DNA of 64,000 nt from Candidatus Latescibacterota bacterium. GTDB taxonomy: Bacteria > Latescibacterota > UBA2968 > GCA-2709665. The position numbers and the translations under genes were made by a program. Each line of letters opens with the position of its first letter. Positions within the stretch are counted from its first letter, which is position 1. Below, in pieces: positions 4,225 to 13,628 of this stretch. The stretch is taken from the NCBI GenBank assembly GCA_965248435.1, contig OZ252100.1, positions 4,832,001-4,896,000 of the forward strand, in the 5' to 3' direction. The notes beneath the pieces were generated by a model. The model did not search any database. It was not told where the DNA came from and saw nothing but the letters and a program-made list of their open reading frames with translations.

Positions 4225-4319
4225 GGTAGACGTCTCGAGTGGGTGGGGTCGTCTCGGGAAGCCGGGGGTGCCGGAGGCCGAGGGAGCCCAGCGACTGAAG
4301 CACAAACCACACGTCACAC
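4225..4319 (-). repeat. Degenerate attC-like site
   Basis: Aligns with the attC-like site at 7173-7304 (TGCCGGAGGCCG-AGGGAGCCC..GCGACTGAAGCACAAA vs TGCCGGAGGCCGGAGGGAGCCC..GCGACTGGAGCGCAAA). Core boxes have decayed (GGTAGAC/GTCACAC). Confidence 0.5.
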
Positions 4320-4405
4320 GCTGGCGGCGCCCCCTTCAAGGTGAAGCCATTCCAGGGGCGAAAGGTGCACACCGTAGACAATAATTTTCTGCTTTTTGGT
4401 TTTGA

Positions 4406-4570
<165 letters not shown>

Positions 4571-4814
4571 TCTCGGCGGCTAGGTCCTTCGAGCACTTGG
4601 ATCTGGAAGAACGTCGACATGGAGGTCGGCGAACGCACCGTGCGGGCTGTCCGCAACGGCGGCTGACCTCGGCTGACCTCGGAGTCCCCGGTTTGGTGAC
4701 GGGTTCGCAAACTCCTTGCTTCGATTGTGCCCCCTTCGCGCCTTGACCAAGACATACAAGTAATCTACCATAGCTGCCATGATCCGTGCATGGCTCGCGA
4801 CAAGGAGACACTTC

Positions 4815-6854
4815 ATGCAGACAGCCGTAGTCCAAAAACCGGACGTGAACGGGTCGAACCAATACTATCCCACGAGCCGCCCGCCCCTCGTTCCGAGTCC
4901 TTTCGCTAAACTTCCTCTTGGGAGCATACGCCCACGCGGGTGGCTCCGCCATCAGCTCGACCTGATGACAGACGGAATGGTAGGACGCATAGACGAGGTG
5001 AGTGAGTATATCCAGGAAGACAGCAGTTGGCTCACGCCGGAGAGCGACAAAGGAACCGAACAGGTACCCTACTGGCTTCGAGGATTCTACCCTCTGGCGG
5101 TACTAACGCACAACGAACGCCTTCAAGAAGAGTCTCATAAATGGATCGACGCCGCCTTTGCCAGCCAGCAGCAGAGCGGCTACTTCGGTCCCGCCAAGTT
5201 CACCTCCGCGTTGCGCGACGGTTTCGGAAGCAGTCTTACCATACAGGCATTGATGATGGATTCTGTTACCCAACATTGCGAATACACAAGAGATGATCGG
5301 GTCATTCCTTTCATGACGCGTTTTTTCGAATATTGTCGCGATCTACCTGATACGGAGTTTGTCCCTTATGGGCGGACTATTGACCAACGCCGCCCATGCG
5401 AAATGGTGGAGCACATTCACTGGCTTTACAACGCAACGGGCGATGGCTGGCTGCTCGATCTTGCCGCGCGTTTTTTCAGACGTTTCCCCCACACAACTGA
5501 TCCGTGGCCCGGCCGTGAAAGGATGCTCAGTCCGAACGTAAAAGAGCGGCCGATACGGTATCGCACCGATGAGTGGCTCGCCCACCACGTGGTGGACTTC
5601 ACGCACCGCTACCGGTACCCGGGCACATACTATGCCCAATCTCATGCCTCATGGCATCTCGCGGCCTCGGAATACTGGTACAATCAGCACTTGGGGACCT
5701 GGGGACAGCCAAGAGGCATTTTCGGAGCGGACGAAGTGATCCGTTCTACCTATACCGATCCTCGTCAGGGGTGCGAAACCTGCGCTCTCGTCGAGTTCAA
5801 CAAGGGATTCTTCATACTGGGGCGCATCACCGGCGATGCGAAGTACGCAGACCGATGCGAAGACATCACGTTCAACCATTTCCCCGTTTCGCACGCTCCG
5901 GATCTCAAAGGTCTCAAGTACCTGACGGCGTCGAACCAGCCTCAACTGGACGCTTCGAACAAACACGAATACGCCAACGTTGCAGCGAGCAAGCTTCATA
6001 CGCTGAGATACTCTCCCCATCAGATCTACCACTGCTGTCAGCACAATGCGGCGATGGGCTGGCCCTGGTACGCACAGAATCTGTGGCAGGCAACAGCAGA
6101 CAACGGTTTGGCGGCGTGGATGTACGCCGCTTCGGAGGTGACCGCAAGGGTGGGATCGCAAGGCGCTGCAGTCACCATTGAACAAGAGACAGAGTATCCT
6201 TTCAGAGGCTCGATTCGGATGAATCTTACGGCTTCTGAGCCAGTCGAGTTTCCGCTTTACCTTCGGGTACCGCAATGGTGCAACGGTTTCGTTGTTCTGG
6301 TGAACGGTAAGACGGTCGACATCGAGGCAGAGCCGCGAATGTATGTCCGAATGATGCGTGTCTGGGCGAGCGGAGATACGCTCGAAATCAAGATGGCGAT
6401 GGAGTTAGGGTTGACAGAATGGCCGAGGAACGGCAGCGTGACTGTAGACCGTGGGCCGCTGAGCTACTCGGTGAGGATCGAGGAAGAGTGGAGGCGATGC
6501 GGAGGTACGGATGAATGGCCTGAGTGGGAGGTGTTTCCTCGAGGCCCGTGGAACTACGGGCTGGTCATAGACCGTGAGAATCCGGCAGAATCCTTGGAGG
6601 TGACGCAGACAGAGTGCTTGTCCGACCAACCTTGGACGGTCGAGGCTTCGCCGGTTGAAATCAGAGCAAAGGCTAAGCGTATTCCTGACTGGAAGCTCGA
6701 GAACGAAACCGTTCAAGAGCTCAGACCGAGTCCGATTAAGTCGGATGAGCCTGAGGAGGTGATCAGGATGGTACCTCTGGGATGTGCCCGGCTGCGGATC
6801 TCTTGTCTTCCCACCGTTGGAAGCGGACTTGAGGCGAGAGAATGGGAAGTCTAG
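4815..6854 (+). CDS. GH127-family glycoside hydrolase (beta-L-arabinofuranosidase-like, DUF1680)
   Basis: EQVPYWLRG, GCETC, CCQHN and ETEYPF motifs. AGGAGA RBS before the ATG at 4815. Confidence 0.88.
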   Translation: MQTAVVQKPDVNGSNQYYPTSRPPLVPSPFAKLPLGSIRPRGWLRHQLDLMTDGMVGRIDEVSEYIQEDSSWLTPESDKGTEQVPYWLRGFYPLAVLTHNERLQEESHKWIDAAFASQQQSGYFGPAKFTSALRDGFGSSLTIQALMMDSVTQHCEYTRDDRVIPFMTRFFEYCRDLPDTEFVPYGRTIDQRRPCEMVEHIHWLYNATGDGWLLDLAARFFRRFPHTTDPWPGRERMLSPNVKERPIRYRTDEWLAHHVVDFTHRYRYPGTYYAQSHASWHLAASEYWYNQHLGTWGQPRGIFGADEVIRSTYTDPRQGCETCALVEFNKGFFILGRITGDAKYADRCEDITFNHFPVSHAPDLKGLKYLTASNQPQLDASNKHEYANVAASKLHTLRYSPHQIYHCCQHNAAMGWPWYAQNLWQATADNGLAAWMYAASEVTARVGSQGAAVTIEQETEYPFRGSIRMNLTASEPVEFPLYLRVPQWCNGFVVLVNGKTVDIEAEPRMYVRMMRVWASGDTLEIKMAMELGLTEWPRNGSVTVDRGPLSYSVRIEEEWRRCGGTDEWPEWEVFPRGPWNYGLVIDRENPAESLEVTQTECLSDQPWTVEASPVEIRAKAKRIPDWKLENETVQELRPSPIKSDEPEEVIRMVPLGCARLRISCLPTVGSGLEAREWEV

Positions 6855-7078: not shown

Positions 7079-7172
7079 ACCCCCGCCTCTACCTTCGACG
7101 CCTTGCGCGTGACCGGGGAGAAGTAATATGGAGTTTGATCAGGACTCAGCCCGTACCGGGTGTGCGATGAAC

Positions 7173-7304
7173 GGCTAACGTCCCCGCGGGCTGCGAACTG
7201 CCAAGCAACCGCCGTGACAGAGGCAAGGTTGCCGGAGGCCGGAGGGAGCCCTTCGGCAGGCTCAGGGTAAACTCCGCGACTGGAGCGCAAAGCCCGTGTT
7301 TTAG
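7173..7304 (-). repeat. attC-like recombination site with an internal REP-like insertion
   Basis: Directly at the methyltransferase stop. Minus strand reads ...AAC-ACGGGCTTTGCG...CGCAGCCCGCGGGGAC-GTTAGCC: paired arms and a GTTRRRY-like R' box. Confidence 0.65.
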
Positions 7305-8068
7305 CTTTGTGAGTTCTTCAGATATGTGACGGGACCTCCGAAGAGAAATATCCCTTTCGGAGTCTTGAAAAAAGGTTCCAGGTCGGAAAGCAGTAAAGCT
7401 CTAACATCATCGATCCTCTCGTTGCCCTGTTCCACAGCTGCAATACAGTTAGTCTGGGTCAATATATAATCCACGAGCGCATCTCGCGAGAAGTTGACTT
7501 CGTTCGTGTAGTGTTCTTTACCCAGAAAATCGAAACCTTCGCGGTTTGCATCTTCTTCTTCAAAAGGTTGACGATTCCGTGGAGGGGTCGGGTACCGCTT
7601 CAGATGCACTTCGTACACCCATTCTTCAAAGTCGGGGTTCTCTGCCATTTTCCCACTGAAACTGTTATTGTAGATCACGAGATACCCGTGGCTTTTCAAG
7701 AGCCTACGTGCCTCTGAAAGAAACCTGGAACGGTCAAGCCAATGGAAAGCAAGCGCAACAGTGATCATATCGAACGAACTATCAGGTAGCGGTATTTCCT
7801 CGGCAGGAGCAACGTAATAGGTAATGCGATCATCCTTTGTGGCAAGGTCTATCATCTCCGAGGATGAATCTATTCCTACGATATTTTTGACGATTTCCTT
7901 GAGAGCCACACAAGATCGTCCTGTCCCGCATGCCACGTCCAGGGCTACTTCCAAAGGATCTGTTAGATTCAGGTAACTCTTGATCATCCCGATAACCAGA
8001 GGATGAAAATATGGCCGAGCCGCCGCATATCTTTTGGCGGCAGTCATATGATCGAAATGACCTGCCAT
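7301..8068 (-). CDS. Class I SAM-dependent methyltransferase (cassette gene)
   Basis: LDVACGTG, AFHWLD and YAAARPYFHP motifs. Visibly lower GC. Confidence 0.9.
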   Translation of the reverse strand: MAGHFDHMTAAKRYAAARPYFHPLVIGMIKSYLNLTDPLEVALDVACGTGRSCVALKEIVKNIVGIDSSSEMIDLATKDDRITYYVAPAEEIPLPDSSFDMITVALAFHWLDRSRFLSEARRLLKSHGYLVIYNNSFSGKMAENPDFEEWVYEVHLKRYPTPPRNRQPFEEEDANREGFDFLGKEHYTNEVNFSRDALVDYILTQTNCIAAVEQGNERIDDVRALLLSDLEPFFKTPKGIFLFGGPVTYLKNSQS

Positions 8069-8161
8069 TGGTTATTCTCTTTCCCCTTCCGCAGCCGGTC
8101 GTGCTATGCGGCTGTGTTGTGTTTTTGCTATCCACGGAACAATTGAGGCGGCCAATTCGTC

Positions 8162-8452
8162 TCAATTGAGAAGTGAGCTAACGTCAGCGATAGCTTCCGG
8201 CAATTTTCGAATCTGACTTTCCAGATCCCATCTGCGTATCAGGGAACCCTTGACTCTTCCAGGTTTTTCCACGTAGAAAGACAGCTTGTCAGCATAATAG
8301 ACTGCCCAGACTAGCCCGAATGTTTCCCTCTCAGCCTGGGAAAGTTGTCGCTCAGAAAGATACCCCTCGAAGAAAGTCTTCATCTCTTCTTTGTGAAGTG
8401 GTCTTCCGTTCCCCTTCGTATCCGTCGTACGTATACGAAGTGATGTCATCAC
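8162..8452 (-). pseudogene. Probable C-terminal fragment of an APH/homoserine-kinase-like phosphotransferase
   Basis: 'FFEGYLSERQLSQAERETF' resembles the C-terminal lobe of this family. No catalytic N-terminal part seen. Confidence 0.4.
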
Positions 8453-8531
8453 GAGACTTTCCTGTGGCCGTCGGTCCTTAAGGCGAACAATGGGCAGAAA
8501 TCCTATATCATCAGCATTGAGCCTTGAACGA

Positions 8532-8969
8532 TCAATCCTTGATGATTCCCTTATGAATCATTGGATTCCCGTCACTCCAAAGGACGCGCTGAACAATGGA
8601 CGCGATGCGCCAAGAGCCAGATATCTTCTTCACACCAAGAATATACAGGCAGTGGGTATTCAGCACTTCACCAGATGAGTCTCTTCGGTGTATAGCCATA
8701 GAGATTCGGGCGGTCCCAACTTCGCCATCAAGCTGTATTTCGTAGTTGCCTGCAAGATGATGAGTCTTTAGCTCCTGCAGTGCCTCACACCGGAGTTTAA
8801 CAAACTGCTCCGCAGTTAGGACTTCGGGGGGGGTTCCACGAAGATCCGAGTAGTCAGTATATATGGACTCGGATAGACAGGACTTCAGGTCATCCCAAGC
8901 CTTGATATCAAAGCAATTTGCGAATCGACTGATTAATCGATACACATGACTCTCATCTGATGAACTCAC
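8532..8969 (-). CDS. SnoaL/NTF2-like domain protein (cassette gene)
   Basis: FANCFDIKAWD, TDYSDLRG, THHLAGN and WRIASI segments. Confidence 0.82.
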   Translation of the reverse strand: MSSSDESHVYRLISRFANCFDIKAWDDLKSCLSESIYTDYSDLRGTPPEVLTAEQFVKLRCEALQELKTHHLAGNYEIQLDGEVGTARISMAIHRRDSSGEVLNTHCLYILGVKKISGSWRIASIVQRVLWSDGNPMIHKGIIKD

Positions 8970-9029: not shown

Positions 9030-9115
9030 GCACAACGTTCTCGCCGTGCGCGAACTTGCCGCAGGCAAGTTAGGCGAAGGCCGGATGGGCTGAGCCGCGC
9101 ACGGTCGTGTTATAC
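9030..9115 (-). repeat. attC-like recombination site (86 bp)
   Basis: Minus strand: GTATAAC-acga-CCGTGCGCG...CGCGCACGG-cgagaac-GTTGTGC, just downstream of the peptidase E gene. Confidence 0.8.
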
Positions 9116-9149
9116 GCTTGCTGGTTCTGGTATCAATGCGGTGTCTGTA

Positions 9150-9857
9150 TCATTTTTCTTCAAGTATTTCAGCCTGAATTGTTTCCTCTTGAGCAGATCG
9201 CTTACCACGCGTGACTCTGTAAGCCTTCGCATTGAGTCGGGATGAGACGACTTTCTTGACCCTCTCTCCTTCGAAGTGAGCGGCTGCGCCGTCATCAAGT
9301 GCAATGCCTGGCAAAATCTTACCTTTCCAGACGAGTTGCTGATAGTAAGGGCGACGGTCGACCTCACTGTCGTAATGTGGGCAACTGCTCCCAGGAAGAA
9401 ATCCGAGACAGTCTAAAGGCAAAAGGGGTCCTTTAACAGAGTCCGTCACTCCCTGTTCGAACCAGCAAATCGCGCCCGCACTGATCCCCGCAAGGATGAC
9501 TCCACACTCCCAAGCTTCCCGAAGCATCTCATCCAATCCCCAGTCCCGCCAGACGGCAAGCATACTTCGAGTGTTCCCGCCTCCAACGTAGATAACGTCC
9601 TTTGCCAGCAGATAGGACTTCAGATCTGCCTCAGTCCTTCTGAAGAAGGTGAGATGTGAAGGCTGACAATCGAGTTGCGCGAAGGCAGTGTAGAATCTGG
9701 CAACATAGGTGTCAGCGTCCCCACTGGCGGTTGGGATGAAGCACACAGAGGGCTTCGTGGTGGAAACCTGGTTTAGAATGTACAAATCCAAAGCAGGTGT
9801 CTCCTCCATGGAAAAGCCCCCTCCGCCCAGTGCAATTATATGTTTCTGCTTACTCAT
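9150..9857 (-). CDS. Peptidase E / S51 family (cassette gene)
   Basis: GGGGFSME, FIPTASGD, VGGGNT, G.SAGA nucleophile motif and CPHYD. Confidence 0.92.
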   Translation of the reverse strand: MSKQKHIIALGGGGFSMEETPALDLYILNQVSTTKPSVCFIPTASGDADTYVARFYTAFAQLDCQPSHLTFFRRTEADLKSYLLAKDVIYVGGGNTRSMLAVWRDWGLDEMLREAWECGVILAGISAGAICWFEQGVTDSVKGPLLPLDCLGFLPGSSCPHYDSEVDRRPYYQQLVWKGKILPGIALDDGAAAHFEGERVKKVVSSRLNAKAYRVTRGKRSAQEETIQAEILEEK

Positions 9858-9926
9858 CGTTGTTTACTGACCCTCCAATAGGCCACCGACTATTTCATAG
9901 GAACGATTACCCCAGAACCAGCTTGC

Positions 9927-10001
9927 GTATAACGATTAAGCGTGTATCCGGAGTCGGAGAAGCGTGGACGGGAGCGGGATTCCGGATACACGGTGTTGAA
10001 C
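9927..10001 (-). repeat. attC-like recombination site (75 bp)
   Basis: Minus strand: GTTCAAC-ac-CGTGTATCCGGA...TCCGGATACACG-cttaatc-GTTATAC, with a 12-bp perfect inner stem. Confidence 0.8.
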
Positions 10002-10206
10002 GAAGCCGCTTCACCTGCCTATGGGGATTGGATGAGTGATTCTTGTGTAAGGACCGCTGGGCTGGCCCAGTCATCGGACCGTATTTGAAGCTGTTTGGAG
10101 GGGCCGATGTCGCAGGATCCCATAGTCGCTCTACCAAGCTCAAAGAGTGGACAGACTACTGCCGTGTTGGGTGGTTGGGCTTGCGGGCAAGGGATGGTGT
10201 AGGAGC

Positions 10207-11397
10207 TCAAGCTACGGCAACATGTGCCGGAGGCGCTCGCAGAGGCGCGAGGGTTCCGACTGTGAGCATAGGGCCTCCGCACTGCGCACAGACCTGAAGA
10301 TCGATGCCTGTTACCCGGAACAGAAGGTCCTGCCAGGTCGCCTTTGTGGCTGCGGAAGCCGTCGTGCATACAGTGCCCAGGAGCCTACGGCATCGTGCGA
10401 GCTTTTTCCGGCGACCCCGATTGCTGAGCAGTCCGTAGTGCCGGATCTTCACGAAGCCATCCGGCAGGATGTGAAGCAGGAACCGCCGGATGAACTCGTA
10501 GGCATCGACGGTCATCAGCTTCCGTCGGTTGCCGGCCTGGCGGTCCCGGTAGTGGAATGAGACCCGGTCGCCCTCACAGGCGACCAGCCGGTGGTTGGAG
10601 ATGGCGATCCGGTGCGTGTATCGTCCCAGATAGGCCACGATGCGTTCTGGACCCGCAAAAGTCGGCTTGACGTAAACGGTCCATTCCCTCTGGTAAAGAC
10701 CCCGAAGCAGATCGAAGAACGCATCTTCCAGTGGAGCACTCAATCCCGGGAACGCCAGAAGGCCTTCCTGGTGCGCGTCCTTCAGGAACGCAAGGAACTT
10801 CCCCCGGAACAGTCGGGACAGAACTTTTACGGGTAGAAAGAAGCCCCGTCGCGCCGCCTTCCATTCCTGACCGTCGTGGGTCAGCCCACCTCCAGTTACG
10901 ATACAGTGCAGATGCGGGTGGTCGATGAGTGTCTGAGACCACGTATGAAGCACGGCGGTAAAGCCGATCTGCGCTCCAAGATACTTCCGTTCCCGCGCCA
11001 GCTCCAGAAGACTCTGCGATGCGGCTTTAAACACCAGGTTGTAGATCAGCTTCTGGTTCCGCAGAGCAAGCGGCCGCAGGGGCTCGGGCAACGTGAAGAC
11101 GACGTGGAAGTATGGGATCGGAAGGAGATCCTCTTTACGAGCGTCGATCCATCGTTCGGTCGTCAGGAACTGGCACTTCGTACAGTGCCGGTTGCGGCAG
11201 GAGTTGTAGGCGATCCGCTTCGTTCCGCACTGCCCGCACACTTCCACGTGTCCGCCCAGCGCAGCTGTTCGGCAGATCTGGATGGCTCGCATGGCCCGCT
11301 TCTGCCGAAGCGGCATGTGATCACCGTAGTGTGCTTGATACCCATCTCCGTGGACTCGGAAGATGTCGGCGACTTCGAGAGGCTGTGACATGGCCAA
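10207..11397 (-). CDS. IS91-family (HUH/Y2 rolling-circle) transposase
   Basis: N-terminal Zn finger (CRTAALGG..C..C..YNSCRNRHC..C), HTW..HPHLH HUH motif, YLGRY Y2 motif and KIRHYG. Confidence 0.95.
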   Translation of the reverse strand: MAMSQPLEVADIFRVHGDGYQAHYGDHMPLRQKRAMRAIQICRTAALGGHVEVCGQCGTKRIAYNSCRNRHCTKCQFLTTERWIDARKEDLLPIPYFHVVFTLPEPLRPLALRNQKLIYNLVFKAASQSLLELARERKYLGAQIGFTAVLHTWSQTLIDHPHLHCIVTGGGLTHDGQEWKAARRGFFLPVKVLSRLFRGKFLAFLKDAHQEGLLAFPGLSAPLEDAFFDLLRGLYQREWTVYVKPTFAGPERIVAYLGRYTHRIAISNHRLVACEGDRVSFHYRDRQAGNRRKLMTVDAYEFIRRFLLHILPDGFVKIRHYGLLSNRGRRKKLARCRRLLGTVCTTASAATKATWQDLLFRVTGIDLQVCAQCGGPMLTVGTLAPLRAPPAHVAVA

Positions 11398-11403
11398 CCT
11401 CCG

Positions 11404-12255
11404 CTACAAGGTCGGCTTGTCTTCATCTCCCAAAAGGTCCAGGGGGCTTCTGATACGCGTGAGATCGCGAGTGGTGACGTGGAGGTAGACGGTGGTGGTT
11501 CGCAGGCTCGTGTGACCCAACAGTTGTTGGACGAAACGGACGTCCACTCCGTTGTCCAGAAGATGTGTGGCGAAGCTGTGACGCAGAGAATGGACACTCG
11601 CACGCTTTTGTATCTCGGCGCGTCGGCAGGCCTGCTCGAAGACTTTCTGGACACTGCGGGCGTGGAGCGGTGCATCCGGTCTTTCGCCAGGGAACAGCCA
11701 ATCGCGAGGCTGGTAGCTGCGCCAGTAGACGCGGAGTGCCTTTAACGCCTCCTGGGCCAGAAGCGTCTCTCGCTCTTTTTGGCCTTTGCCCCGCACACGG
11801 ATCAGCATCCGGTCACTGTCGATATCGGAAAGCTTTAGCCCGATGGCCTCACTCAGTCTGAGCCCGCCAGAGTAAATGACCATCAGCAGCGTACGGTGTT
11901 TCAGGTTGTTGGTCCTGTCGATCAGCCGCTGCACTTCCTCTGTGGAGAGTACCACCGGGAGCTTCTTTGCCTTCTTCGCACGAGGGATGCCCCACTCGAC
12001 CCAGTCACGCTTCAACGTCGTTTGGAACAGAAACTTCAGTCCGCTGTATACCTGGTTGACATAGCTTTGGGACAGCTTCCGCTCAGTGATCAGATAGTGC
12101 AGATAGGCGCGGATCTCTTCTTCGCTGAGCCGGTCGGGCGGTGTCTTGCAGTAACGACACAGCCCGGCCACTCCGCTCACGTACGCCTTCTGCGTATCCG
12201 GATCTAAACCTTTCAACTGCATGTCCCGGATCATTCGCTTCCGATGCTTGGTCAT
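11404..12255 (-). CDS. Tyrosine recombinase, integron-integrase-like N-terminus, no IntI-specific insertion
   Basis: KKLPVVLS.EEV, YSGGLRLSE, HSLRHSFATHLL and LLGH...T.VY motifs. At 283 aa it lacks the extra IntI segment before HxLR. Confidence 0.93.
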   Translation of the reverse strand: MTKHRKRMIRDMQLKGLDPDTQKAYVSGVAGLCRYCKTPPDRLSEEEIRAYLHYLITERKLSQSYVNQVYSGLKFLFQTTLKRDWVEWGIPRAKKAKKLPVVLSTEEVQRLIDRTNNLKHRTLLMVIYSGGLRLSEAIGLKLSDIDSDRMLIRVRGKGQKERETLLAQEALKALRVYWRSYQPRDWLFPGERPDAPLHARSVQKVFEQACRRAEIQKRASVHSLRHSFATHLLDNGVDVRFVQQLLGHTSLRTTTVYLHVTTRDLTRIRSPLDLLGDEDKPTL

Positions 12256-12487
12256 GGCTCTCTCCTTCTGCTGATGGTGGACGTTGTTAGCAGAAGGAGG
12301 ATGCGAAGCACAGAGCCATTTGCAAAGTGGCTCCGGACTTGCACGGTATCATATCCTGGTTGTCAAAGAGCAAAGGCCTTGCAGCAGGCCACCGCGAAGC
12401 GGTTTAGTTCAACTTCTGCATTCGCGCACCATGTGCGCAGATTCCACCTGTAGGGCAGATAGAATGCCCTGCCTGAATCCTGCTAAT

Positions 12488-12516
12488 AATATAGAGAATG
12501 CGTATTGGTTCGTGAA
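12488..12516 (-). promoter_or_regulatory. Candidate sigma70 promoter reading into the element and array
   Basis: TTCACG-17 bp-TATATT on the minus strand, about 75 bp upstream of the first GTT core. Confidence 0.35.
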
Positions 12517-12560
12517 CCCAATTCATAATGCGTATGTGTTCTTCCAGATCCAAGAAGCAT

Positions 12561-12596
12561 AAAAAAAGAGGGCGCAACGTTTTCGTTGCGCCCTCG
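12561..12596 (-). terminator. Terminator of the ECF operon
   Basis: GAGGGCGCAACG/CGTTGCGCCCTC hairpin followed by T7 on the minus strand. Confidence 0.85.
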
Positions 12597-12624
12597 CGTT
12601 TCAAAAGATCTGTGTCGCCAGTCG

Positions 12625-13605
12625 TTACTCGGTCGCGGCCCCTCCGTCGAAGCGTCTCTTGAAGTTCGCCTTCAACTCCTCAAGCAGGGCCTTCTGTTCC
12701 TCCGTGAGAAGGCCGCTGATCATTTCCTGGAACTCGTTGCGCAGCGCCTGGACCTGCTCACGCACGGTTCCACGCTCGGCTCCGGCGGCGCGCGCCTCTT
12801 CGATGAGCGCCTTCACCGCAGCCTGCCGATTTTCTTTCAACGCAGTCATCTGCTCCTGCTGATCGGCCGTGAGCCCGAGCTTTTCGGAGATGTCGCCCGC
12901 ACCCCGGGCCCGCTTACCTCTTTTTCCACGTGCGCGGTCATGACGGGCTGATTTCATTTCTTCGAACAGGGCCTTCTGCTCGTCATTCAAGATGCCCAGG
13001 ATCTCTTCGTGAAGCTGATCACCAAGGGCCTGCTTCTGCTCCCTGAAGCTCTCCCGATCGGAGCCTGCTGCCTTCGCCTCTTCGATCAGCGCCTTTATGG
13101 CAGCACCGTGCTCTTCTCGAATGGCCGTGATTGCCTCCTGCTGCTCGCCCGTGAGCCCAAGCCTTTCAGCGAAGTCGCCCGAGCCGCCGGCCCGTTTCCC
13201 TCGCCTCCCGTGTGGGCGGGACTGGCGAGCGGCTTTCAGCTCTTCGAACAGCGCCTTCTGCTCGTCGTTCAGGACAGAAGCGATCCGTTCGTGGAACTGT
13301 TCGCTTAGCGCCCGCTTCTGCTCCCGGAACGTCGCCCGATCGGAACCCGAAGCCTTCGCCTCTTCGATCAGGGCCTTGATGGCGGCCCTCTGCTCCTCCC
13401 GTATGGCGGTGATCGCTTCCTCCTGGTCCTGGGTCAAGCCCAGCTTCTCGGCCAGGCTGCCGCCCGCGGATGTGAAGGCTGCATCCGATTCGCCCGCCAG
13501 CTTTTGAGCCTGTGTGGCCAGGCTGGACGTTGCCGTCTCATTACCGCACCCATATACCCCGATGCCGATCATCAGCAGGGATAGGAAAATCGCTTTGGCT
13601 TTCAT
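12625..13605 (-). CDS. Lipoprotein with three tandem Spy/CpxP (LTXXQ)-like domains
   Basis: Signal peptide with lipobox VYGC. Three repeats of 'EKLGLT.(D/E)Q...AAIKALIEEA(K/R)A.G...L(N/T)(D/E)EQKAL.EE.K' joined by RG-rich linkers. Confidence 0.75.
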   Translation of the reverse strand: MKAKAIFLSLLMIGIGVYGCGNETATSSLATQAQKLAGESDAAFTSAGGSLAEKLGLTQDQEEAITAIREEQRAAIKALIEEAKASGSDRATFREQKRALSEQFHERIASVLNDEQKALFEELKAARQSRPHGRRGKRAGGSGDFAERLGLTGEQQEAITAIREEHGAAIKALIEEAKAAGSDRESFREQKQALGDQLHEEILGILNDEQKALFEEMKSARHDRARGKRGKRARGAGDISEKLGLTADQQEQMTALKENRQAAVKALIEEARAAGAERGTVREQVQALRNEFQEMISGLLTEEQKALLEELKANFKRRFDGGAATE

Positions 13606-13628
13606 GTCGTTCCTCCTTCGCAAAAAGT

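Follow-up and report, generated by a model that had tools for sequence, protein, structure and literature searches.

Insertion sequences (IS) of the IS91 family, such as IS91, IS801, IS1294 and the ISCR relatives, encode a Y2 (HUH) transposase with a zinc-binding N-terminus and have two unlike ends, oriIS and terIS, with subterminal palindromes and no target duplication. Single-stranded circles are described for IS91 in literature cited by PMC13181058, and the passage of that paper on targets gives GTTC, CTTG, GTCC and a few others, with TAAC not among them. We analysed a stretch of 64,000 nucleotides (the window) from a Candidatus Latescibacterota bacterium (GenBank assembly GCA_965248435.1, contig OZ252100.1, positions 4,832,001 to 4,896,000), in which a unit on the minus strand joins a tyrosine recombinase gene to an IS91-family transposase gene. 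We found that this unit is an ISAzo26-like IS91 element with a cassette-mimicking end, which homes to integron sites.

Classical IS91 and IS1294 carry neither a recombinase gene nor a terminal hairpin module. Their 5' design is CGAG or GAAC, 4 nt and the palindrome GCAGCC-TGG-CGGCTGC, and at the other end IS91 terminates in ...TTCCTATCGAT and IS1294 in ...TTTCCTATACGT, adjoining a CAAG or GAAC flank. This agrees with the design given in the part of PMC13181058 that describes the ends. For the ISAzo26-like subgroup the searched papers state neither a target rule nor a role for the recombinase. More generally, a search that combined IS91 with attC, integron or tyrosine recombinase found no paper with such a target rule, only passing hints; subscription papers and the ISfinder and TnPedia pages lay mostly outside it, and the rule may be described elsewhere.

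Site-specific and orientation-specific insertion into integron recombination sites, which the element described here shows as well, is known from the IS1111-attC group and from group IIC-attC introns. The insertion points of these two within attC are not known to include the G/TT crossover (here and below the slash marks the crossover position). Their enzymes are also different, an RNA-guided DEDD transposase in the IS1111-attC group (as stated in an excerpt of PMC11187229) and a reverse transcriptase with a ribozyme in the introns (likewise from an excerpt of PMC3001079), and neither mimics a cassette. For ISCR28, which lies beside sul4, the published passage contains no recombinase gene, rule or mechanism, and it is set against our element by description only.

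Results

Six copies of the element are bounded by G/TT and carry their own attC-like end

The genome contains six copies of the element with 98-100% identity, each exactly 2480 bp between G/TT junctions. When the ends were aligned every copy included the hairpin next to the downstream junction, and the flanks differed between copies. An earlier note on this DNA, made from the sequence alone, had described this hairpin (9927-10001) as a full attC-like one; since it is present in all six copies it is the unit's own end and does not belong to the downstream array. The same note had proposed that the unit is mobile, and six near-identical copies in differing flanks bear this out. Contigs from public runs break at the element boundaries, and the element has about five times the depth of the flanks (X1, 194-217 against 40.5; X2, 66-71 against 12.7). 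Because flanks and site variants are 70-89% identical and the elements 98-100%, we ruled out segmental duplication as the source of the copies, and the adjoining ~125-nt site described below as part of the element.

On the minus strand GTTGAAC begins at 12413 (gttcaac on the plus strand, 12407-12413) and GTTCAAC lies at 10001-9995 (gttgaac on the plus strand, 9995-10001). The two end regions are complementary at 16 of 18 positions. These features, with which the earlier note began, are read directly in the sequence. Between 9941 and 9992 a 12-bp stem, CGTGTATCCGGA/TCCGGATACACG, is perfect, with zero bulged bases, and the inner hairpin is identical in four copies and has one loop base changed in the other two. 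Joining the ends gives the circular junction AATCG/TTGAAC, which yields GTTGAAC, the exact complement of GTTCAAC, and forms a single long hairpin (z -3.8 to -5.3 relative to 100 dinucleotide-shuffled sequences). The excised circle would carry an attC-like folded site, with a GTTCAAC/GTTGAAC outer stem extended to 18 bp, an asymmetric internal loop, the 12-bp inner stem and a loop. A scan for the R''-L''...L'-R' geometry flags the element's own 3' end as attC-like in three of the six copies in situ, and an Rfam search of the window matched no family anywhere.

All six copies are bounded by G/TT and restore the R' box on circularisation, and the GTT is constant at both junctions in 6/6, which means that it is not a variable target duplication. 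The unit obeys cassette rules, as had been claimed: it has G/TT at both junctions and its own attC-like folded 3' site with an R''/L''/L'/R'-like geometry, and R' is complete only when the ends are joined in the circle. It differs from integron cassettes in its length of 2.5 kb, its two genes for its own enzymes and its six copies per genome, and also in its perfect inner stem, which has no extrahelical bases, and its asymmetric spacer (2 nt versus 7 nt).

The insertions mark a family of sites at the heads of cassette arrays

The 5' flanks of all six copies are related to one another, and a search with a profile derived from them returned 11 genomic places at E<0.001. The element occupies six of these 11 sites, with identical position and orientation in every case (6/6), and two unoccupied ones read ...GAAG/TTAAC and ...GTAG/TTAAGT. 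Insertion is in one orientation, at the G/TT crossover triplet of sites of the integron type. When the element's ends are joined, the resulting junction shares GTT alone with the targets. This identity is too short for classical double-strand exchange, yet it is the integron rule.

The targets in this genome are not ordinary attC sites; they are instead a special family of ~125-nt sites. We rejected a canonical attC as the identity of the site, as no R'' partner was found for its R' box. The site stands at array heads, is found beside solo recombinase genes in relatives and ends in GTT, yet it occurs at 11 places here. Three identities are conceivable for it: a platform site of the attI kind, a special type of long attC, or an end left behind by relatives of the element that have the recombinase alone. 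What is new here is the nature of the targets, a separate site family linked to IntI relatives that lack the insert, in a genome without another candidate integrase.

In the window the first resident cassette carries an S51 peptidase gene. It starts TTATACGCAAGCTGGTTCTG at 9932, and the complementary CAGAACCAGCAAGCGTATAA(C) lies at 9129-9109 (18/20, null maximum 14), with the attC hairpin at 9115-9030. The same arrangement was seen at six of eight sites, where the 20 nt after G/TT complement a stretch 0.6-2.2 kb downstream at 15-18 of 20 positions (shuffled-query maximum 14-15). The last letters of this stretch are ...TAAC, and behind it lies a typical attC hairpin with GTTAGCC, GTTACAC or GTTGTGC at its end. 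The complementarity was absent at the remaining two of the eight sites (12/20), one of which has a 7/7 R''/R' pair, ACTTAAC versus GTTAAGT.

We scanned the genome for attC-like sites with a home-made scanner of the R''-L''...L'-R' geometry, which replaced a stricter detector (R-box complementarity of 6/7 or better, with pairing of the R boxes in the minimum free energy fold) that missed attC sites seen by eye. Eleven of 64 distinct attC-like loci were located within 6 kb downstream of the eight junctions, where 0.54 were expected, and none within 6 kb upstream. This indicates that the ~125-nt sites head cassette arrays, and it agrees with the earlier placement of the unit at the head of an attC array. 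The element, lying between the site and the first cassette, is in the position of the most recently acquired cassette and adjoins the platform site as the newest cassette would.

Within the window the only well-supported attC is the one at 9115-9030. A further one, downstream of the methyltransferase gene, was judged plausible only by eye, and the intergenic stretches have weak fold energies (7165-7310, z 0.01; 8455-8535, z 1.42; 8070-8165, z -0.42). Elsewhere in this genome (G000:C1) several arrays, such as those at 2060874-2069328, 3854204-3857175, 4947924-4952793 and 1442591-1445616, share an attC type ...GGCTGCGGC...TTCGCAGCCCGCGAGAAC GTTAGCC. As the genome has no IntI over the cut-off, standard tools would call such arrays clusters of attC sites lacking an integron integrase (CALINs).

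Upstream of the window's site, between it and an LTXXQ-family gene (12625-13623), there is a strong terminator-like hairpin with a T-run (12568-12600, minus strand), and the array thus begins right after an ordinary operon. A duplicated segment of the same contig (4624078-4625534 and 4649797-4651300) carries a gene for a phage-type integrase (362 aa, PF14659 and PF00589) with a partial ~125-nt site about 300 nt after it. The second copy of this gene is split into two frames, and its site holds a copy of the element.

Table 1. Features of the element and its surroundings, with positions in the window.
Feature	Position	Strand	Remarks
Target site, ~125 nt, structured, ending ...GAATGCAGAAG just before the crossover	12414..12532	-	nhmmer family, flank alignments, fold z -2.66
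Upstream GTT triplet, site/element junction with the G/TT crossover position	12411..12413	-	
Mobile unit in cassette form, TTGAAC...AATCG, 2480 bp	9933..12412	-	six copies of equal length
5' end: box GTTGAAC, TAA, palindrome ACCGC-TTC-GCGGT	12385..12413	-	resembles IS1294 terIS (GAAC, 4 nt, palindrome)
Tyrosine recombinase, 283 aa, short Xer/IntI-like, catalytic residues kept, no IntI-specific insert	11404..12255	-	PF00589 and PF13495
IS91-family Y2 (HUH) transposase, 394 aa from ATG, N-terminal zinc-binding domain	10207..11391/11397	-	PF04986 and PF14319
CCCCATAGG motif, kept in the 3' regions of relatives and at the start of solo-recombinase sites	10018..10026	-	by eye
Subterminal inverted repeat GAAGCGGCTTCGTTCAAC, holding the R''-like box GTTCAAC	9995..10012	-	complements the 5' end 16/18
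Inner hairpin (L''/L'-like), perfect 12-bp stem, 28-nt loop	9941..9992	-	
Tail CTTAATC, then the downstream GTT triplet (9933-9931)	9931..9940	-	
First resident cassette: S51 peptidase gene (9150-9857) and attC	9036..9932	-	R'' GTATAAC 9115-9109, R' GTTGTGC 9036-9030

The recombinase is related to IntI and lacks its insert

A search of the whole genome with TIGR02249 gave 23 matches, none over the cut-off, and the only match in the window was the element's own recombinase. The statement that the window has no IntI therefore extends to the genome. In the phylum 17 of 168 genomes, not including this one, have a canonical IntI over the cut-off. No intact solo homologue of the recombinase was found in the genome, which has one 82-aa fragment, adjoining one of the ~125-nt sites.

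The recombinase scores 191.4 bits against TIGR02249 (cut-off 265) and 133.4 bits against NF011946 (cut-off 435), and is also below the curated XerA cut-off (214.9 versus 220). All 21 homologues scanned from the phylum are likewise under the IntI cut-off. The match to the IntI model falls into two stretches that skip model positions 176-236. Its best solved relative is VchIntIA (PDB 2a3v, E 8e-35), again aligned in two stretches, with 26 residues of the recombinase opposite 68 in IntI4, so that about 42 residues of the insert are missing. Alignments of 12 canonical IntI proteins of the phylum span 308-316 residues, except for one that spans 390, compared with 262-288 for the short type. In an alignment with four relatives the columns of the catalytic Arg, Lys, His, Arg, His and Tyr are invariant.

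We placed the recombinase in a quick maximum-likelihood tree of 119 rows, rooted on two host Xer proteins, in which relatives of the query are over-represented. The IntI proteins of the canonical type group in one clade (SH-like approximate likelihood ratio test, SH-aLRT, 99) and the short recombinases in another (SH-aLRT 96), both apart from the host Xer proteins. Within the short type 38 of the 39 transposase-linked rows lie in one subclade of 48 rows (SH-aLRT 93), and the solo recombinases that carry the ~125-nt site fall just outside it. An 'integron-like' subgroup in Smyshlyaev et al. includes members without the conserved insert (in the section of PMC8138268 that defines it).

Like IntI, the recombinase has the catalytic residues, GTT sites and an association with cassette arrays, and its clade is apart from host XerC/D. 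It differs in the ~42 missing residues, in its score under the cut-off and in forming a clade distinct from the canonical IntI of the same phylum. The term 'IntI-like' used earlier is fair for its affinity, not for its membership.

The transposase and the ends are those of ISAzo26-like elements

The transposase scores 449.6 bits against NF033538 (cut-off 125) and its translation shows the motifs HPHLHCIV and YLGRYTHR. The recombinase gene precedes it on the same strand with a gap of 6-12 nt. By tblastn against plasmids we found the same gene pair in the same order in Aromatoleum aromaticum EbN1, Clostridium tagluense and Sinorhizobium, and the EbN1 transposase is named 'IS91-like element ISAzo26 family' by the Prokaryotic Genome Annotation Pipeline (PGAP). 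Among species-representative genomes, the 80 best recombinase loci include 38, from many phyla, with an IS91 transposase directly downstream. The gene pair is not novel; it is widespread and belongs to an already named IS91 subgroup. ISShvi3, ISWz1 and others in ISfinder are presumably members of this subgroup too.

The elements of this family have a common end architecture. At the 5' end a box with AC as its last letters precedes TAAACCGC (or GAAGCCGC or GAACCCGC) and a short palindrome. After the transposase gene the 3' end has GCGG, about 4 nt and the box in reverse complement, and it closes with a long hairpin and a short tail. Complementarity of the ends of at least 15/18 at the same positions was found in 12 of the 37 elements with enough flank, and the box sequences vary; ISAzo26 itself has GTTGGAC...GTCCAAC with a long hairpin. 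Our element shares with the subgroup the gene pair and its order, this end architecture and a single recombinase clade. We read it as an autonomous IS91-family IS of this subgroup, in which the tyrosine recombinase gene precedes the Y2 gene.

The unit also agrees with the IS91 family at large in having the Y2 enzyme with a zinc-binding N-terminus, distinct ends of the oriIS/terIS type with subterminal palindromes and no target duplication. Its 5' end is GAAC-TAA-ACCGCTTCGCGGT, compared with GAAC-CACG-GCAGCCTGGCGGCTGC in IS1294. It differs from the family in the added tyrosine recombinase gene, in a ~100-nt attC-like module after tnpA in place of the ...TTTCCTATAC end, and in a target that is a long specific site rather than a tetranucleotide. 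No GTTC or CTTG target abuts its oriIS end; all eight sites have GTTA in the sense strand (TAAC in the antisense strand).

Related loci and elements in other genomes

In five other genomes of the phylum (G037, G057, G058, G076 and G086) the stop codon of a solo recombinase homologue is immediately followed by a site of the ~125-nt type. At 6 of the 7 loci inspected the site follows the stop directly and ends GTAG/TTA or GAAG/TTA, and at two of three solo-recombinase loci the unit that comes first downstream follows cassette logic, with a canonical attC at its end. On this arrangement, recombinase, site and cassettes in one direction look like an integron-like platform. In G076 (contig C51, locus L144) the site type or its 3' anchor occurs two to three times within 14 kb (locus positions ~1859, 10640 and 14244), downstream of a solo short recombinase gene and with canonical attC-like sites between the copies.

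A genome of the same family (G041) has three copies of an element with the same architecture, a recombinase 56% identical and a different inner stem. The ends of these copies read GTTGAACAAAACCGC... and ...GCGGCTTTGTTCAAC-ATAA-TTGTATACGGA-ACTTCGC-TCCGTATACAA-TCTTTACC-GTTA. Two of them start 178 nt after the stop codon of an intI in the same direction, one intI being full length (464.5 bits) and the other truncated. The third splits an attC of the form GCCTAAC...G/TTAGGC, with R'' 86 nt upstream and R''/R' complementary at 7/7. The first-cassette complementarity test failed in G041 (13-14/20, null maximum 14-15).

Two of the G041 loci (L157 and L158) hold intI, its downstream region and the element twice over with left flanks common to both, which suggests that the whole integron head was duplicated. 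One G041 copy, at L052 (G041:C1:2157579-2163579), has a nested insertion of ~1.65 kb in its 3' region (locus positions 4252-5898), flanked by the 8-bp direct repeat AAATAACG.

Three relatives from Acidobacteriota (L080, L088 and L093) have GACTT rather than GTT common to tail and target (GCSGACTT/). This means that integron targeting is not a property of the whole subgroup and that the choice of target has diverged. Thus the expectation that homologous elements abut integron sites was borne out in G041, at an intI region and an attC, and was not borne out in Acidobacteriota.

Discussion

Our data confirm the observation on which the earlier interpretation was built, together with the mobility of the unit, its cassette rules and its position at an array head; the hairpin does not belong to the array, the gene pair is not novel, the recombinase is not an IntI by membership and the targets here are not ordinary attC sites. 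We see about an even chance that the ends of this ISAzo26-like element form an attC-like circle junction through which it homes to integron-type G/TT sites. In such a cycle the Y2 transposase would copy the element out as single-stranded circles, and the element's recombinase would recognise the folded junction and the target site and carry out an IntI-like single-strand exchange at GTT. This recombinase may also work in trans on the cassettes nearby, since the genome lacks IntI and any further intact member of the family. A division of labour in which Y2 makes the single-stranded circles and the recombinase the strand exchange seems to us evenly balanced between right and wrong. It is favoured because a 3-nt identity fits single-strand exchange, because the absence of the insert and of bulged hairpin bases is self-consistent, and because solo homologues of the recombinase come with sites of the same kind as the targets. 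The catalytic motifs of both enzymes are intact.

Several observations weigh against this reading. The recombinase is without the insert by which IntI binds extrahelical attC bases, and the inner stem of the element is unbulged, so that IntI-like single-strand chemistry is an assumption. It is just as possible that the complementary ends serve in double-stranded DNA, as inverted repeats to which a protein binds. Neither a circle junction nor an empty site was found among the public-run contigs, a result that is uninformative either way. The geometry scan gave 54 and 53 matches per strand against 22 on the shuffled genome, from a home-made scanner, and this scanner found no attC arrays near the three G041 copies. 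No long common target was found at the three Acidobacteriota relatives, and the recurrence of the ~125-nt site two to three times within one G076 array means that it is not a unique attI.

The rules of IS91 fit the geometry as well. Insertion might be rolling-circle transposition in which Y2 alone cuts and joins at an antisense TAAC beside the oriIS end, exposed in extruded hairpins, with the recombinase an accessory for multimer or cointegrate resolution or for regulation. In the antisense strand all insertions (8/8) lie 3' of a TAAC, next to the oriIS end, and the element ends CAAC, in analogy to the CTTG/GTTC target and CTCG terIS of IS91 in the passage of PMC13181058 cited above. The 5' end (GAAC, 3 nt, palindrome) parallels the terIS of IS1294, there is no true target duplication, and palindromes stand at the end downstream of tnpA as they do in oriIS (described in parts of PMC13181058 and PMC5737581); the short GACTT-type target of the Acidobacteriota relatives would fit as well. 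However, a tetranucleotide cannot explain why 6/6 insertions are in an 11-member site family within 5.7 Mb. The conserved target sequence adjoins the terIS end, not the oriIS end, the known tetranucleotides GTTC and CTTG are unused, and the canonical ...TTTCCTATAC motif of IS91 and IS1294 is not at the terminus. That the target sites are those accompanying solo recombinase homologues also argues against Y2 acting alone, which we consider unlikely. Less likely still is a passive cassette, inserted through its attC-like end by a host integrase (a canonical IntI or a solo short recombinase) and using its own genes for other moves. The insertion point is exactly the cassette insertion point of IntI, relatives carry solo recombinases beside the same site, and two G041 copies follow a canonical intI (one full length, one truncated). 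Yet this genome, with no IntI over the cut-off and only an 82-aa solo fragment, has six copies at 98-100%, the element's hairpin has none of the bulged bases read by IntI, and the element recombinases mostly form a coherent clade that has kept its transposase linkage across many phyla (38 of 39 rows in the 48-row clade).

A further question is what the ~125-nt sites are. They may be the orphaned 3' ends of recombinase-only relatives of the element, with the arrays secondary, an origin that could be combined with any mechanism of insertion and that we regard as possible though rather doubtful. The sites begin right after the stop codons of solo recombinases, one site in this genome follows the 82-aa fragment, the site recurs within one array (G076), and by eye the motif order CCATAGG...GAAC...hairpins...G/TT is common to the sites and to the element's 3' region. 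Against this, the site profile shows no significant similarity to that region, most sites in this genome have no recombinase remnant nearby, and attC-like sites lie downstream of the sites here and never upstream, which is the behaviour of a platform site. It is also conceivable, although we think it improbable, that the element is an 'integron in a cassette': the short IntI-related recombinase would serve as the active integrase in a second type of integron in this phylum, one without the insert and with recombinase, ~125-nt site and attC cassettes following each other in one direction. The transposase would feed it single-stranded DNA, and in genomes like this one, which lack IntI and an intact solo homologue, the six copies would keep orphan arrays recombining.

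IS91 elements with a second, integrase-like gene have been catalogued, and the searched papers give that gene no role or target rule. The anatomy of this element, a cassette shape that lands exactly at the cassette insertion point, suggests both. If the recombinase does insert the element, this would be a natural coupling of an HUH enzyme that produces single strands with a tyrosine recombinase that recombines them, and would add a third class of integron-site parasite to the two known from the IS1111-attC group and from group IIC-attC introns. This could then also be the reason why cassette arrays without an integrase stay dynamic. Our data further point to possible integron-like platforms headed by insert-less short recombinases, which standard finders would not score. 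In practice, elements of the type described here can interrupt arrays and place outward-reading genes beside the platform site.

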